From an uncultured Bacteroidales bacterium (GTDB lineage Bacteria > Bacteroidota > Bacteroidia > Bacteroidales > UBA3663): 64,000 nt of DNA. Position 1 is the stretch's first letter. Each line of letters begins with the position of its first letter. Shown here in pieces: positions 15,953-55,459 of this stretch. The stretch lies in NCBI GenBank assembly GCA_902770595.1, contig CACXTQ010000007.1:237-64236 (forward strand). The letters are read 5' to 3'. Both the position numbers and the translations under genes were made by a program. The notes under the pieces were generated by a model. It worked only from the letters and a program-made list of their open reading frames with translations. It had not been told where the DNA came from and did not search any database.

Positions 15953-17269
15953 ATGAAAAGCAGAATCATTCTTCTTCTGATGTCATTCCTGCCATGCTCG
16001 CAACTGATGGCGCAGGCACGGGTGACCGTCACCAACCCCAGCAGCCTGCAGCGACAGGAACTGGTCGCCATCGATGCGCAGCAGGTCTATGACCTCGTGG
16101 GCATCAGTCAGGGCGAGCCCTTCGTCGTGAGCCAGGTGGTGGGGCAAAAGCCCGACGGAAGTGACAAGCTGCGCGAAGTCGATTTCCAGGTCACCTACGA
16201 CGGCAAGCTGCTCATCGACGCATCGGTGCAGCCCGGTCGGACGACAGAATACGTGGTGGAGCGAGGCGTGCCCCGCAGGATGCGCTCCTACGACACCCTG
16301 CCCCAGCGCACAGCAGCAGGCGGATGGGGCGTGGGCAAGGTATGGACCGAAGGACGTCTCTACCCCGAACGTCTCGACGACATCGCCTGGGAGAACGATC
16401 GCGGCGCCTATCGCGTCTATGGACCCGCCTTCCAGCGCAACGGCAGCATCGGCTATGGCCCCGACGTGTGGGTCAAGAACACGCCCGAACTCGTCGTAGC
16501 GCGCCGTTTCAGCATGGAGATCGACATCAAGCCCACGCAGCGCCAGCTCAGTCGTGCAGGCTATAAGGCAGAAGCCGACCAGCTGGTCGATGACAACTCG
16601 TTCCACATCGACCACGGCATGGGCAACGACTGCTATGCCGTAGGTGCCACCCTCGGATGCGGAGCACCAGCCATCCTGTCGGCCGACGGCAACATCTGCT
16701 TCCCCTACGCCTGGCAGCAGTACGAGATACTCGACAACGGCCCGCTGCGCTTCACGATGAGCCTCGTCTTCGGCGACACCCTCATCGAAGGTCGCCGCCT
16801 GCAGGAGCATCGCATCATCTCGCTCGACAAGGGCTCCAACTTCAATCGCGTCGAAGTGTGGTACGAAGACCTTTCCTCCGGCAATCGCCACGACAAGCCC
16901 CTCACCGTCTGTGCCGGCTTCCCGCTCCATGCGCCCAACGAATCGACCGTGGTGCTTGGCAACGACTTTATCCAGTATGCCGACCCGACGGACAATCCTA
17001 CAGCCAATGCCTTTCAGCTCTATGTAGGTTGCCTCTTCCCTGAGGGGGAAGTGAGCACACGCACCGACTTCGGACACGCCATCGGCGTCACCACACTCAA
17101 GGTGGGCGAACACTGGACCTACTATGCAGGTTCCGCCTGGAGCAAATACGACGTCCGCAACCAGCTGGAATGGCAGGCCCGCATCAACACCGTCCTCCAG
17201 GCCCTGCGCAGCCCGTTGGAAACAATGGTCTCCAAGCCCGATTCCGCTACAGACACGACGCAAAAATAA
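15953..17269 (+). CDS. DUF4861-like exported protein
   Basis: Signal peptide; PERLDDIAWENDRGAYRVYGP and FHIDHGMGNDCYAVG motifs. Confidence 0.8.
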   Translation: MKSRIILLLMSFLPCSQLMAQARVTVTNPSSLQRQELVAIDAQQVYDLVGISQGEPFVVSQVVGQKPDGSDKLREVDFQVTYDGKLLIDASVQPGRTTEYVVERGVPRRMRSYDTLPQRTAAGGWGVGKVWTEGRLYPERLDDIAWENDRGAYRVYGPAFQRNGSIGYGPDVWVKNTPELVVARRFSMEIDIKPTQRQLSRAGYKAEADQLVDDNSFHIDHGMGNDCYAVGATLGCGAPAILSADGNICFPYAWQQYEILDNGPLRFTMSLVFGDTLIEGRRLQEHRIISLDKGSNFNRVEVWYEDLSSGNRHDKPLTVCAGFPLHAPNESTVVLGNDFIQYADPTDNPTANAFQLYVGCLFPEGEVSTRTDFGHAIGVTTLKVGEHWTYYAGSAWSKYDVRNQLEWQARINTVLQALRSPLETMVSKPDSATDTTQK

Positions 17270-17382
17270 TTTGTTTCCACCCGTCTTGGGAAGAAAAAAT
17301 GAAATGATTCGTCATTTTTTCCTGTTTGGATTTGGTGGTAAGCACGAATTTGATTATCTTTGCGGCGTTAATTACTACTGCA

Positions 17383-18357
17383 ATGAAACCATACAAGTTT
17401 GAACCCATCCTGAAATCCACCATCTGGGGAGGATATCAGATTGCCCCATTCAAGGGCATTTACACCGCGCAGCCCAACATCGGCGAGAGCTGGGAGATCA
17501 GTGGCGTGCCCGGTCAGGACAGCGTGGCCATCGAACGCGGCCTTATCGACGACGTCGATGTGGGACTCACCCTCACGCAGCTCATCGACAAGTACAAGGG
17601 GCTGCTCGTAGGCAACAAGGTCTATAAGCGCTTCGGCAACAAGTTCCCCCTGCTCGTCAAGTTCATCGACTCGCGCCAGGATCTGAGCGTGCAGGTGCAT
17701 CCCGACGACAAACTCGCCCAGGAGCGTCACGGCTGTGCAGGCAAGACCGAGATGTGGTACATCATCAAGAGCGACGTAGGCGCCAAGATCTATGCAGGCC
17801 TCAAGAAGAGCATCACGCCCGAGGACTACGAGCAGATGGTGACCACCGACTCACGCGAGGGCGAGAATCCCATGGCAAATGTCATAGCCACCCACGAGGC
17901 ACATCAAGGCGACCTGTTCTTCCTCCCTGCCGGACGTCTGCATGCCATCGGTGCCGGATGCTTCCTCGCCGAAATCCAGCAGACCAGCGACATCACCTAT
18001 CGCGTATATGACTTCGGACGCAAGGATGCCCATGGCAAGCCGCGCGAGCTCCATATCGAGCAGGCCAAGGATGCCATCGACTACCAGGTGTGGCCCGAGT
18101 ACAGGACATCCTACGACAGCACACGTCCCATCACGCAGCTCATCAACTGCCCCTACTTCATCGTGCATCGCGTGGTCGTGCAGGTGGCGCAGCAGATCGA
18201 CTTCCATTGCGACTCGTTCGTCGTGGTGGTCTGCCTGTGGGGTGAAGCCAACATCAACGGCGTCAAGGTGCGCCAGGGCGAGACCTTGCTCGTGCCCGCC
18301 TCCGAAAACACGCTCTACATCTTCGGCAACGCCACCTTCCTCACGGCAACAATGTAG
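17383..18357 (+). CDS. manA: Mannose-6-phosphate isomerase, class I
   Basis: IWGG, GESWEIS, FPLLVKFID, LSVQVHP, GKTEMWY, HAIG, EIQQTSD motifs. Confidence 0.92.
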   Translation: MKPYKFEPILKSTIWGGYQIAPFKGIYTAQPNIGESWEISGVPGQDSVAIERGLIDDVDVGLTLTQLIDKYKGLLVGNKVYKRFGNKFPLLVKFIDSRQDLSVQVHPDDKLAQERHGCAGKTEMWYIIKSDVGAKIYAGLKKSITPEDYEQMVTTDSREGENPMANVIATHEAHQGDLFFLPAGRLHAIGAGCFLAEIQQTSDITYRVYDFGRKDAHGKPRELHIEQAKDAIDYQVWPEYRTSYDSTRPITQLINCPYFIVHRVVVQVAQQIDFHCDSFVVVVCLWGEANINGVKVRQGETLLVPASENTLYIFGNATFLTATM

Positions 18358-18390
18358 TCAAATTCGTCAACTTTGCAATCACTTCTATAT

Positions 18391-18423
18391 GCAAACCGCC
18401 CACAAAGGGCGGTTTGCTTTTTA
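18391..18423 (+). terminator. Intrinsic terminator after manA
   Basis: GCAAACCGCCC-ACAAA-GGGCGGTTTGC-TTTTT. Confidence 0.85.
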
Positions 18424-18492
18424 TGCGTAGACTGACAATGGCAAAAATATTAGTTGTTTCTTTGCGGCACGATCTTTGATTTATTGAGGAAG

Positions 18493-18853
18493 AAGTACTC
18501 TGACGGGAGACAGAGTACTTGCGCAAATGGAGGAAGCATCGTGACGGCCGACAGGATGCTTGATGCAGGAGGATTGAGCACTCTGACGGCCGACAGAGTG
18601 CTTGCGCAAATGGAGGAAGCATCGTGACGGGCGACAGAATGCTTACTTCTGGAGAATCGGGTACTCTGACGGGCGATAGAGTACTTGTTCCAATCGGAGA
18701 ATGGCCATTCTTGGCCAAGATTGGTTATGCTTCGATTAGATAGAGCATCCTGACGGGCGACACGATGCTTGCTCCTGCAGGAATGAGTACTCTGACGGGC
18801 GACAGAGTACTTTCGCAATCGGAGAAAGCATCCTCTCGGCCGACAGAGTGCTT
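18493..18853 (+). repeat. Array A: nine 28-bp hairpin units at 41-42-bp period
   Basis: Unit starts 18493, 18534, 18576, 18617, 18659, 18701, 18743, 18785, 18826; 10-bp arms around ACGG(G/C)CGA core; the unit at 18701 is a different palindrome. Confidence 0.9.
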
Positions 18854-18950
18854 GAGGCGATTGAATATTGCCGAGGATACACGAATAGTCGTGAATCGAC
18901 ATGAATTATTATTCGCTTGGCGAAAATGAAACCCTATTTCAGATCGTGGC

Positions 18951-19356
18951 ATGTCCCCCAAGGTACCGTGGAGGATATGCCACGATTGTCGTATGTCCGC
19001 TAACGTTCGTTGAAGGATATGCGAAGGTAGCAGGATGTCCGCTAACGTTCGTTGGGGGATATGCGGAGCTGGGGGCATGTCCCCTAACGTTCGTTGAAGG
19101 ATATGCGACGATGGAGGAATGTCCGCTAACGTTCGCGGGAGGACATGCAACGATGGGAGGATGTCCTCTAACGTTCGCAGAAGGACATGCGACGACGGGA
19201 GGATGTCCGCTAACGTTCGTTGAAGGACATGCGGAGGTGGGGGCATATCCCTTAACGTTCGCTGGAGGATATGCGACGATAGCAGGATGTCCGCTAACGG
19301 TCGCTGGAGGATATGGTTCTATAGAATGATGTCCCCTAACGTTCGTTGGGGGACAT
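18951..19356 (+). repeat. Array B: ten 28-bp hairpin units at exact 42-bp period
   Basis: ATGTCCnnTAACGTTCGTTGnnGGAYAT starting at 18951+42n (n=0..9), 14-bp linkers. Confidence 0.95.
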
Positions 19357-19532
19357 GATCACGAAAAGCCCCCCTCGGTCCCATTTAATTAAAGGGAGAA
19401 GATGCCATCCAGTCCCGATTTATTTATCACGAATTATCGAATTTGAGAATTAAATTTCAAAACCACCGCGGCATATTTTCACTCGTCAAGTATATTAATA
19501 TTCAACTATTTACATTAACAAAAATTGTCTTT

Positions 19533-19799
19533 TTATTGGACAATATCATATATATACCATGGCGACATTTTATCCGTTCTTAATGCCTGCTTGCCCTCGG
19601 GCAAAGATTCTACGATACTCAGAGAATCGTCAAAATCCATCATTTCACCTAATGATATAACCACTGCGTCTGATTCTTCAAGATCCTCTTCGCGCCCAAG
19701 AAACTGCCAATCTCCATTTTCTTCATGTATAATTCTAATTATTTCCGAATTATCATAAATTACAAATCTTGTAGTAATAACGTACTGATTTCTATTCAT
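19533..19799 (-). CDS. Imm33/DUF2185-like small acidic protein
   Basis: IIHEENGDWQFL...ISLGEMMDFDDSL...LPEG motif; low GC. Confidence 0.6.
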   Translation of the reverse strand: MNRNQYVITTRFVIYDNSEIIRIIHEENGDWQFLGREEDLEESDAVVISLGEMMDFDDSLSIVESLPEGKQALRTDKMSPWYIYDIVQ

Positions 19800-19827
19800 C
19801 TTATTTTAGAACAAAAGCCTTCGACAA

Positions 19828-21096
19828 TCAAACTGACAACCACTTCCATGCCGGGATGACTTCGACATTACCATAGGTATCGGGGATGGTATTTTCCTCG
19901 TCGTAAGTCAAAATCAATCTTCTGCGACATGGCATGAACTTTGGCAGTTTCATCAGGGCATCCACTTCCCGCTTGCGGGTTTCCTCATCGCGAAGTGAAT
20001 AACATACTTGAATTGCGAGTTCATCTTCTGGAATATAAAAATCTACCTCAAAATTGTCATTGTAGAAGAAAATCCGTTCATTATCCAAGTCATGACCATA
20101 AAGGCGAAACAATTGAATGGCGACAAGGTTCTCCAACAACATAGCATCCTTGTCCATCAAGAAGAGACCTAATATTCCACTATCAATAAAGTAGTATTTG
20201 CAGTTACCCTCCTTCTCTGCAAGAGTAGTTGCATAATTTCTTAACCGCAATAGCAGCCATGCATCCTCACAATATTCCACATACTTTATGGTCGTTGCCA
20301 AACTTAGTTTGCCTCCTACGGTCGAAAGCAGGTTATTGATGCGATTGTAGGAAATCGGGCGACATACACTCTCTGCCATTTTCCTGACCAGTACCCTGAT
20401 ACCTGCAGTATTCGTTATTTTATTACGAGCAATGATGTCTCCCATATAGATTTTTTGATAAACACTGCTCAAATAATTTCTTTTAGCCGGCAAAAGAGCG
20501 GTGTCGGGAAGGCCTCCATAATGCAAATATTCGTCAAACAGGCGCACCACTTTTGCTCGTTCTTCTGTGGATAGAATGACAAGATCGCTTACAGGAACTT
20601 TGTGTACCGACAGGAACTCCTTGAAACTATACGGATAAACCTCTGCTGTCATAAAACGACCGCCCAATGTAGTATTTATCTCTCCGGAGAGCATCTTTGC
20701 ATTGGAGCCCGTGATAATAATAGTATATTTGCTATCGGCCATCCTACGTGCAAATTTATGCCATCCATCTATATTCTGTATTTCGTCGAGGAAAAGCATA
20801 GGACGTTTCCCATACATCTCCTGATGACACTCCAACAACCGATTGAAGTCTTCCGTGCCGAAATCCTCCAAACGTTCGTCCTCAAAGTTCATATAGAGTA
20901 TCTCATCCCATTTTCGTCCTTCGGCAAGCAGTTGCTGGATACGATGATATAGCATAAATGACTTACCTGCCCTTCGTACGCCCACCAATACATGGCATGG
21001 GAAATCATCCAACCTTATTTGACGAGGTTCGACAACATATCGTTCCACTTCCTGCTGGTTATCACGGAGTATCTGTTTTAGTATTTGCTTATCCAT
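19828..21096 (-). CDS. AAA_14 ATPase with C-terminal DUF4143 (PD-(D/E)XK-like) domain
   Basis: GVRRAGKS, FLDEIQN, ITGSNA, GGLP, KYYFIDSG, LENLV, EVDF..LAIQVC; lower GC than flanks. Confidence 0.9.
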   Translation of the reverse strand: MDKQILKQILRDNQQEVERYVVEPRQIRLDDFPCHVLVGVRRAGKSFMLYHRIQQLLAEGRKWDEILYMNFEDERLEDFGTEDFNRLLECHQEMYGKRPMLFLDEIQNIDGWHKFARRMADSKYTIIITGSNAKMLSGEINTTLGGRFMTAEVYPYSFKEFLSVHKVPVSDLVILSTEERAKVVRLFDEYLHYGGLPDTALLPAKRNYLSSVYQKIYMGDIIARNKITNTAGIRVLVRKMAESVCRPISYNRINNLLSTVGGKLSLATTIKYVEYCEDAWLLLRLRNYATTLAEKEGNCKYYFIDSGILGLFLMDKDAMLLENLVAIQLFRLYGHDLDNERIFFYNDNFEVDFYIPEDELAIQVCYSLRDEETRKREVDALMKLPKFMPCRRRLILTYDEENTIPDTYGNVEVIPAWKWLSV

Positions 21097-40339: not shown

Positions 40340-40380
40340 TCGGAGTATTCGGAATATTCAGAGTACTCGGAGTATTCAGA
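40340..40380. repeat. 9-bp tandem repeat (TC(G/A)GA(G/A)TAY)
   Basis: About 4.5 units; same family as 55410-55459. Confidence 0.75.
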
Positions 40381-55409: not shown

Positions 55410-55459
55410 TCCGAATACTCGGAGTGCTCAGAATACTCCGAATACTCAGAATACTCCGA
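55410..55459. repeat. 9-bp tandem repeat in addA leader
   Basis: TCCGAATAC/TCGGAGTGC/TCAGAATAC units x5.5. Confidence 0.8.

Follow-up and report, generated by a model that had tools for sequence, protein, structure and literature searches.

How can a hairpin that is unrelated to its neighbours occupy one slot of a tandem array in exact register with them? The question is raised by positions 18701-18728 of the stretch of DNA analysed in this study (64,000 nucleotides in total, hereafter the window), where a 28-nt palindrome, ATGGCCATTCTTGGCCAAGATTGGTTAT, lies within array A (18493..18853), a row of nine slots comprising eight A-type hairpins and this flagged unit. The pairing described in a first-pass annotation of the window was reproduced by our palindrome scan, which found 10 Watson-Crick pairs and 2 G.T pairs for 13-nt arms around a central GC; with 14-nt arms and no gap, the corresponding numbers are 11 and 2. 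The hairpin centres of array A are located at 18506.5, 18547.5, 18589.5, 18630.5, 18672.5, 18714.5 (the flagged unit), 18756.5, 18798.5 and 18839.5. The flagged unit is thus in exact register, since its centre is 42 nt from that of each neighbouring hairpin, as the annotation had claimed, but a uniform 42-nt period could not be upheld for the array as a whole, in which intervals of 41 and 42 nt alternate. The A-type hairpins also belong to two alternating subtypes (GTACT.. and GCATC..). Both array A and array B, which follows it, were additionally picked up by Tandem Repeats Finder and by a repeat finder.

Within the window, the flagged 28-mer has no second copy when up to 3 mismatches are allowed, and 100 shuffles yielded 0 matches. 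In the genome, 94 further places are found within 4 mismatches of it (both strands counted), which puts this palindrome far above chance and contradicts the possibility, left open by the annotation, that no other copy exists. Its nearest relatives, units at C1:135891 and C9:15516, differ from it by 1 mismatch. When compared with the consensus units of six palindrome families (A to F, described below), it shows 2 mismatches in 28 positions to C, 12 to F, 16 to both A and B, 18 to D and 20 to E. The reported lack of similarity to A and B units was therefore borne out, and the difference between 2/28 (C) and 16/28 (A) identifies the unit as a copy of a third abundant family, with 117 units genome-wide, of the kind that the annotation had proposed to look for. 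In other words, the flagged hairpin is a C-family module located in slot 6 of array A.

The module together with its two 14-nt linkers spans positions 18687..18742. The A-to-C linker, gttccaatcggaga, and the C-to-A linker, gcttcgattagata, are similar (as judged by eye) to those found at A/C junctions in other mosaics (C70:4264-4725, C1:54223-54640 and C63:13296-13670), which indicates that a whole 42-nt module occupies the slot. BLAST matches of 82-84% run across the A/C junction.

These figures bear directly on a rival explanation, according to which the flagged unit is a decayed A unit that became palindromic by chance, or the arrays encode 14-residue protein repeats. The first part is contradicted by the distances given above (16/28 to A, 2/28 to C and a single mismatch to the units at C1:135891 and C9:15516). 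The second draws on ORFs that run through both arrays on both strands, e.g. 18901-19329 (+), which specifies 142 aa with a 14-residue repeat. Against it stand the 41-nt periods of the A and F arrays, which break any reading frame and so rule out a conserved one, the palindromic nature of the units, which are open on both strands, and the finding that an ORF of at least 120 aa reaching beyond the array overlaps only 4 of 63 arrays. We regard this explanation, in either form, as extremely improbable. The ORFs of 142-173 aa passing through the arrays of the window (18901-19329 on the + strand, 18725-19246 and 18450-18902 on the - strand) were judged spurious, and it should be borne in mind that annotation pipelines may call them as genes. 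The pattern also differs from that of a CRISPR array, in which nearly identical repeats alternate with unique spacers of about 30 nt: here the 14-nt linkers are conserved within arrays while the repeats vary, and no Rfam CRISPR-DR match was found in the region 17000-21000.

The surroundings of array A were examined as well. Upstream lies an ORF (17326..18357, + strand; true start probably near residue 20) which, from the look of its translation, we take to be mannose-6-phosphate-isomerase-like and call manA. Between manA and array A, a terminator-like G+C hairpin with a T run (18391..18424, + strand) was read from the sequence; it is conserved in two sister genomes (G010 and G027). On the other side, a small ORF is followed by what is presumably an ATPase-like ORF (the translations of these neighbours were judged by eye). 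Array B (18951..19356, + strand) consists of ten B-type hairpins with a period of 42 nt, oriented like those of the arrays that are linked to the B-type helix-turn-helix gene (see below). A weak extra palindrome (18873..18900; 10 of 14 Watson-Crick pairs) is placed between the two arrays, out of register, 47 nt past the last A unit; it matches no family and its status is uncertain.

Two other kinds of repeats were noticed in the course of the analysis. The window carries tandem 9-bp units, TCGGAGTAT / TCCGAATAC, at 40340-40380 and 55410-55459; related palindromic clusters were found genome-wide (47-52 members on 19-24 contigs), and these look like a separate dispersed repeat family. A G+C-rich 28-nt hairpin, CGGTGGCAGCC...GGCTGCC, is present in about 42 copies spread over 26 contigs, possibly as a repeat family of terminator-like or other nature.

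In order to place array A in its genomic context, the whole assembly (G000; 3.64 Mb, 125 contigs, 84% complete) was scanned for palindrome chains. All 28-nt palindromes were clustered, and six consensus units (starting with AAGCAC, ATAACC, ATACAG, ATGTCC, GGTCCA and TAGCAC) were then used in a search at up to 8 mismatches. This census yielded 265 A, 117 C, 108 D, 100 B, 49 E and 21 F units (about 660 altogether), compared with 0-2 for each of the reversed-consensus controls. The units form 86 clusters, of which 63 contain at least three units (arrays) and 21 are single units; the arrays, at least 63 in number, are intergenic and are distributed over at least 40 contigs. A seventh family, G, is represented by a ten-unit array at C20. 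All share a common design, in which a 28-nt palindrome and a 14-nt linker are repeated head-to-tail with a 41/42-nt period, and 59 of 72 array blocks in G000 have 9-11 slots (the arrays of related genomes also have about 10 units). When the relatives are included, more than twelve unrelated unit sequences are found with the same 28-nt palindrome and 14-nt linker at a period of 41-43 nt. Units of one array are more alike than units of different arrays, and the linkers are conserved within arrays, the repeats being the varying part.

The mixing of families observed in array A is by no means an isolated case. Both A and C units are present in 18 of the 63 arrays (13 AC, 3 ABC and 2 ACD), with C units in register inside A arrays and A units in register inside C arrays. 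This agrees well with the proposal of the annotation that the units are exchangeable modules drawn from a larger pool. The mosaics are often regular, e.g. CCACCACACCA, AcAcAcAcAcA and ACACAC, or the D/E alternation edededede, and many arrays close with one unit of another family (D9+E, E9+C, A10+C). The window locus reads AAAAAcAAA, gap, BBBBBBBBBB in the genome-wide census, and its paralogous composites at C18 (AAAAcAAAA followed by 11 B units) and C54 likewise carry one C unit in the middle of the A block.

The slot was also compared between relatives, as the annotation had recommended, using manA as an anchor for orthologous loci (576 relatives were found); all of the genomes compared are metagenome bins. 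In three sister genomes (G010, G027 and G031), manA shows 99% amino-acid identity to that of the window. In G027 it is followed by AAAAAcAAAA, again with a single C unit in slot 6, which differs from that of the window at 2 positions, both of them G.T-forming transitions on the + strand. In G010 the order is AAAcAAcAA, i.e. two C units within a repeated A-A-C pattern. In G031 (L098, G031:C271), similarity to the window ends right after the manA stop codon and unrelated genes follow, with no arrays; the breakpoint of this rearrangement or insertion coincides exactly with the site of the arrays. DNA contigs from another study match 18585-18730 and 18701-18970 without differences. It follows that the C unit has been inherited, while the number and order of units drift between close relatives. 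Variation was also seen at the level of samples: contigs from two RNA-library runs and one DNA run contain a joint that goes back 41 nt at 18585-18625, i.e. an extra 41-nt unit variant of array A.

Beyond these close relatives, the orthologous slot could not be followed. Synteny after manA is not conserved in the 80 other species inspected, and a hairpin chain of any kind was found at 1 of 80 loci (L011). At this locus (L011:2690-2900), where manA is 95% identical, a separate hairpin array with a 41-nt period and an unrelated unit is located upstream of manA. Of 61 genomes searched, 9 carry the C pattern, namely G000 and 8 of the 36 congeneric species (55-119 matches per strand). It is missing from all 24 genomes that represent other families of the order, and the reversed control gave 0. 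The D pattern was found in 8 of the same 61 genomes, all of them among the 9 that carry C.

What distinguishes these arrays from anonymous repeats is their association with a gene. All-against-all BLAST of the 250-bp flanks showed that these are mostly unique (26 similar pairs among 126 flanks); the few arrays whose flanks do resemble each other have in common a small ORF that is directed towards the array with its 3' end. When three of the encoded helix-turn-helix (HTH) proteins were used as tblastn queries, 20 loci were detected in G000. An array directly follows the gene at 14 of them: 13 have an array of families A-F located 14-246 nt past the gene, and the fourteenth is the ten-unit G array at C20. 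The other six comprise one locus at a contig end, one with no array, one 35-residue fragment and three weak matches. Viewed from the side of the arrays, an HTH gene or its remnant is present within 600 bp in 14 of 63 cases and in none of the other 49. The latter include the window, whose array we read as an orphan mosaic; its paralogue at C18 retains a 77-residue HTH remnant. The first hairpin begins 13-31 nt past the HTH stop codon in many linked arrays, and exactly 18 nt past it in those of the C, D and G types.

The same pairing was observed in related genomes. Of the homologous HTH loci found there, 52 are followed by 200 nt or more of sequence, and 47 of these 52 carry an array with a 41-43-nt period (some were scored at the doubled period of 84 nt). 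Two of the remaining five have only 2-3 weak copies, and three have no array. In three additional cases the sequence stops 6-123 nt from the gene. These 47 loci include species that lack families A-F and possess different units, which are still ~28-nt palindromes with a 41-43-nt period (3-7 units). The pairing thus persists at HTH protein identities of 26-55%, with wholly different units. As a baseline, the single hairpin chain among the 80 manA loci of other species may be used.

The type of the array follows the type of the protein. A tree of 42 HTH proteins groups the C-linked (8/8) and A-linked (6/6) members, as well as the D-linked ones, into a single clade per type (support 100/96 to 100/99), and all 10 A-type HTH loci detected in relatives (five species) carry A arrays. 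Arrays behind C-type HTH genes hold foreign units at fixed slots (e.g. ccaccaCCCc): at 7 of 8 such loci, from six species, 1-2 A units are present, and the eighth contains one A and one D. In G000 itself, the only copy of the C-type HTH gene is interrupted by a stop codon and lies at a contig end.

Two further observations concern the gene neighbourhoods. At C6:65843-66812 of G000, an E-type array is located 110 nt upstream of a divergent, distant HTH homologue (34% identity, 118 residues), an arrangement unlike that of all other linked arrays. In several cassettes of G000 (C69:336-1052, C44:491-1111, C90:2-511, C3:98276-98761 and C68:13817-14326), the HTH gene is preceded by an ORF which, judging by eye from the translation, presumably encodes an N-acetylmuramoyl-L-alanine amidase. 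All of these cassettes are located within ~1 kb of contig ends; they are thus multi-copy and break assemblies.

The linked proteins are small (128-170 residues), stand-alone HTH proteins of the AraC type. The D- and B-type proteins match Pfam HTH_18 with 52.5 and 63.5 bits, respectively (cut-off 33.6), whereas those of the A, F, G and C30 types remain below the cut-off, with 17-24 bits; PF12833 is listed for relatives of the C-type protein in a precomputed table. In NCBIfam, only the DNA-binding ends of AraC-family regulators were matched, weakly and below the threshold, and the public names given to the family are limited to "helix-turn-helix transcriptional regulator" and "AraC-like DNA-binding protein". 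An AlphaFold model (28-sequence alignment; pLDDT 87.1, pTM 0.80) predicts a seven-helix AraC-type fold with two HTH motifs. Compared with 3w6v_A, 3lsg_A and 1bl0_A, it gave target TM-scores of 0.77-0.86 and rmsd values of 1.6-1.8 A over ~100 residues, and it superposes at 1.6-1.8 A on both the DNA-binding domain of AdpA with DNA and MarA with DNA. In an alignment examined by eye, a W-R-x-x-Q segment is nearly invariant and a later helix varies between subfamilies; we assume that these are the equivalents of the two HTH recognition helices of MarA (the first and the second, respectively). At the N-terminus, the proteins also carry a conserved extension (~40 residues), and their C-terminal helix is long.

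Since the HTH clades match the array families, the units can be read as cognate protein-binding modules. The explanation that we favour, although we place it only slightly on the probable side, is that the units are the binding sites of the bacterium's own HTH paralogues, and that the arrays constitute a pool of modules exchanged in register. This pool includes at least seven unrelated 28-nt palindromes (A to G), all packaged alike, as 28 nt plus a 14-nt linker in about ten head-to-tail repeats. Each type has a "master" array of about ten units, starting 13-100 nt past the stop codon of its HTH gene, which specifies about 135-165 aa, and each unit would be a candidate double-stranded DNA site of the corresponding paralogue. 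The 42-bp spacing is equivalent to about four helical turns, so that consecutive sites would face the same side of the helix. Orphan copies, placed between genes and with no HTH gene of their own, make up the majority of the arrays and include that of the window; they would serve as extra landing sites. The period and linker design common to all types would make the units exchangeable in register, and exchange, probably by recombination or gene conversion between arrays, may give rise to stable mosaics such as A4-C-A4. The flagged C unit would then be one putative site for a C-type protein amid a row of putative A-type sites. As to the cellular role, we can offer a guess, i.e. a protein-loaded landmark, insulation or a roadblock at gene ends.

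The family of the flagged unit, the pool of modules, the mosaics and their inheritance, the linkage of gene and array and the fold of the protein are direct results of the analysis. Protein binding, the mechanism of exchange and any cellular role are what we infer from these patterns, and several considerations call for caution. The reading is weakened by the 49 of 63 arrays that lack an HTH gene nearby, by the Pfam scores of the A-, F- and G-type proteins, which remain below the cut-off, and by the interrupted state of the C-type gene in G000. Gene and array are physically linked, so that related loci are not independent of one another and matching clades could result from common descent alone; co-diversification by itself is no proof of interaction. 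Moreover, MarA and other domains of the AraC type usually act as monomers on asymmetric sites of ~20 bp. Binding of this type would fit a 28-nt palindrome poorly, unless two monomers bind.

A palindrome may act at the level of DNA or, after transcription, as an RNA hairpin. A competing explanation is that the arrays function as RNA: runs of hairpins in 3' UTRs would stabilise or terminate transcripts or be processed, the founding copy would simply be carried by the transcript of the HTH gene, and any hairpin, the foreign unit included, could stand in for another. The spacing between gene and array is tight (13-31 nt in many cases, as given above), which implies their co-transcription and fits a role in RNA too. 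The gene contexts point in the same direction, since arrays favour the 3' ends of genes: among the 53 arrays not placed at contig edges (10 of the 63), 27 lie between convergent, 19 between tandem and 7 between divergent genes, according to crude ORF calls. RNA-library contigs cover 18585-18787 (including the flagged unit), 18786-18961, 18857-19125 and 19119-19460, and the downstream genes at 19584-19900 are uncovered in two RNA runs and covered in a DNA run. Such contigs can show neither strand, ends nor level, and DNA may be present in RNA libraries; the uncovered stretch 18408-18575 (X16, X17) and the many short-sided joints in the RNA-run contigs carry no interpretable signal. Orientation was not decisive either, as asymmetric arrays, the gene-linked ones included, are codirectional with the upstream ORF in 15 cases and divergent from it in 7. 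A covariance-model scan of 17000-21000 against Rfam gave 0 matches at E-values up to 1.

The substitutions within the units are more informative in this respect. The arms vary independently within each family, and double changes that preserve pairing are no commoner than in shuffles, i.e. no family shows an excess of compensatory changes. The idea of the annotation that length and structure are selected independently of sequence is supported only between families, whose unrelated units keep the common geometry. Because the A and C units are nearly palindromic and their orientation is ambiguous, per-array counts of G.T versus A.C mismatches are confounded, and we therefore recounted them on the sense strand of HTH-oriented arrays, which gave 171 G.T versus 234 A.C. 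By family, the G.T/A.C counts are 19/65 for C, 3/58 for D, 5/19 for A, 88/53 for B and 16/1 for F; G.T is thus the more frequent mismatch in the B and F types, and also in G. Both substitutions that separate the C units of the window and of G027 produce G.T pairs on the + strand, as would be expected of an RNA hairpin. Taken together, the lack of compensatory excess and the overall count, in which G.T does not exceed A.C (most clearly in C and D), argue against a sense-strand RNA hairpin as the common object of selection, and the mismatch pattern fits imperfect double-stranded palindromes. A function in RNA would, in addition, give no reason for the unit sequence to track the HTH clade, and we consider it unlikely as the general explanation.

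Of similarly low probability, in our opinion, is the view that the arrays are minisatellite-like elements comparable to REP/BIME or MITEs, selfish or neutral, which spread and become homogenised through recombination, that their adjacency to HTH genes reflects hitch-hiking or an insertion preference, and that the foreign unit is a functionless by-product of gene conversion. Several of the observations described above would suit such elements: the high copy number within one clade (C in 8 of the 36 congeneric species and in none of the 24 genomes that represent other families), the greater similarity of units within arrays than between them, unit composition that differs between sister species and unit number that differs between samples, the lack of arrays after the same gene in G031, and the decay of units with no compensation. 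Nevertheless, a Y1 (RAYT) transposase was not found in the 84%-complete G000 assembly (PF01797, 0 matches; control genomes were matched), and the 26 similar flank pairs trace to the HTH cassette, so that a MITE-like leader or tail is absent from the mostly unique flanks. The 9-11 slots and the fixed 28+14 geometry, maintained across unrelated sequences and species, are hard to explain with no constraint, and the link between gene and array survives at 26-55% protein identity, with wholly different units.

How, then, do these arrays compare with known systems? Searches of the open-access literature turned up relevant papers on REP/REPIN and BrickBuilt elements, but none that describes these arrays or their pairing with a gene. 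Architecturally, the closest system is sopB-sopC, in which sopC sits downstream of sopB. The sopC site of the F plasmid contains 12 direct repeats of 43 bp, in each of which SopB binds a 16-bp inverted repeat (PMC3177203). The likeness, i.e. a gene for a DNA-binding protein placed beside about ten tandem repeats of ~43 bp that hold inverted repeats, applies to the gene-linked arrays; the array of the window has no such gene. A partition centromere of this kind relies on a ParB-family binding protein with a ParA ATPase as partner, on one replicon. Our system differs in that the protein is of the stand-alone AraC type and not ParB/SopB, and in the presence of dozens of chromosomal arrays on at least 40 contigs, most of them lacking the gene, with several paralogous specificities and mosaics.

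As regards genomic lifestyle, the nearest counterpart is the REP/BIME-RAYT system, whose BIMEs alternate two REP types in tandem with fixed linkers, and which, like the arrays described here, consists of high-copy, short extragenic palindromes of 20-40 nt favouring gene 3' ends. REPINs flank the gene of their cognate RAYT protein (PMC3116915) and REP palindromes bear a GTAG or CGTC tag at one end (PMC3733652). The units identified in this study have no GTAG/CGTC end tag ("gtag" occurs only in some linkers), their linked gene encodes a DNA-binding domain with no catalytic domain, the Y1 transposase was not found in G000, and they are arranged head-to-tail in arrays of ~10 units with a strict 41/42-nt period. 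Among the repeats described in Bacteroidales, the nearest is BrickBuilt of Porphyromonas gingivalis, which is composed of 23-nt units with no spacers and of leader/tail subunits with inverted-repeat ends, in 19 copies (PMC4596501). Both are Bacteroidales-specific, strictly intergenic, multi-copy and built of short tandem units (PMC4596501), but our arrays consist of 28+14-nt palindromic units, share no flanks, belong to several families and are linked to an HTH gene. The linked protein, finally, has the two-HTH AraC-type fold of MarA/SoxS/Rob and of the AdpA domain (AraC/XylS). Unlike these proteins, it lacks a ligand or dimerisation domain, has an N-terminal extension and a long C-terminal helix, and is multi-copy, each paralogue being followed by a tandem palindrome array.

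Whatever their function, the arrays explain a practical nuisance, since together with the multi-copy gene cassettes they are present at many contig ends in metagenome bins. To our knowledge, dispersed palindromic repeats are common in bacteria, and, apart from the REP/RAYT pairing, most of them have no known partner protein. Here, the repeat types can be assigned to one particular family of minimal DNA-binding proteins, which has diversified, and the mosaics are inherited across species. Variants of protein and site that match each other in nature would be useful for studying the evolution of AraC-type specificity and as a source of orthogonal parts.

We may also venture a broader and more speculative view, clearly less probable than the binding of cognate paralogues as such, namely that the arrays and genes form a chromosome-marking system. 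Minimal AraC-type proteins would have radiated, each acquiring a private palindromic "address" in ten-site, four-turn arrays, with one array behind its own gene and dozens at gene ends; mosaics such as the A4-C-A4 array of the window would then act as combinatorial landing pads recruiting two paralogues in a fixed order. If true, this would represent a natural programmable protein-array code, previously undescribed, with possible uses in the insulation between convergent genes, as replication or transcription roadblocks, or in nucleoid organisation. In any case, with these results an anonymous repeat becomes a system of protein-DNA recognition that can be tested, and one that belongs to abundant Bacteroidales of the rumen and gut.
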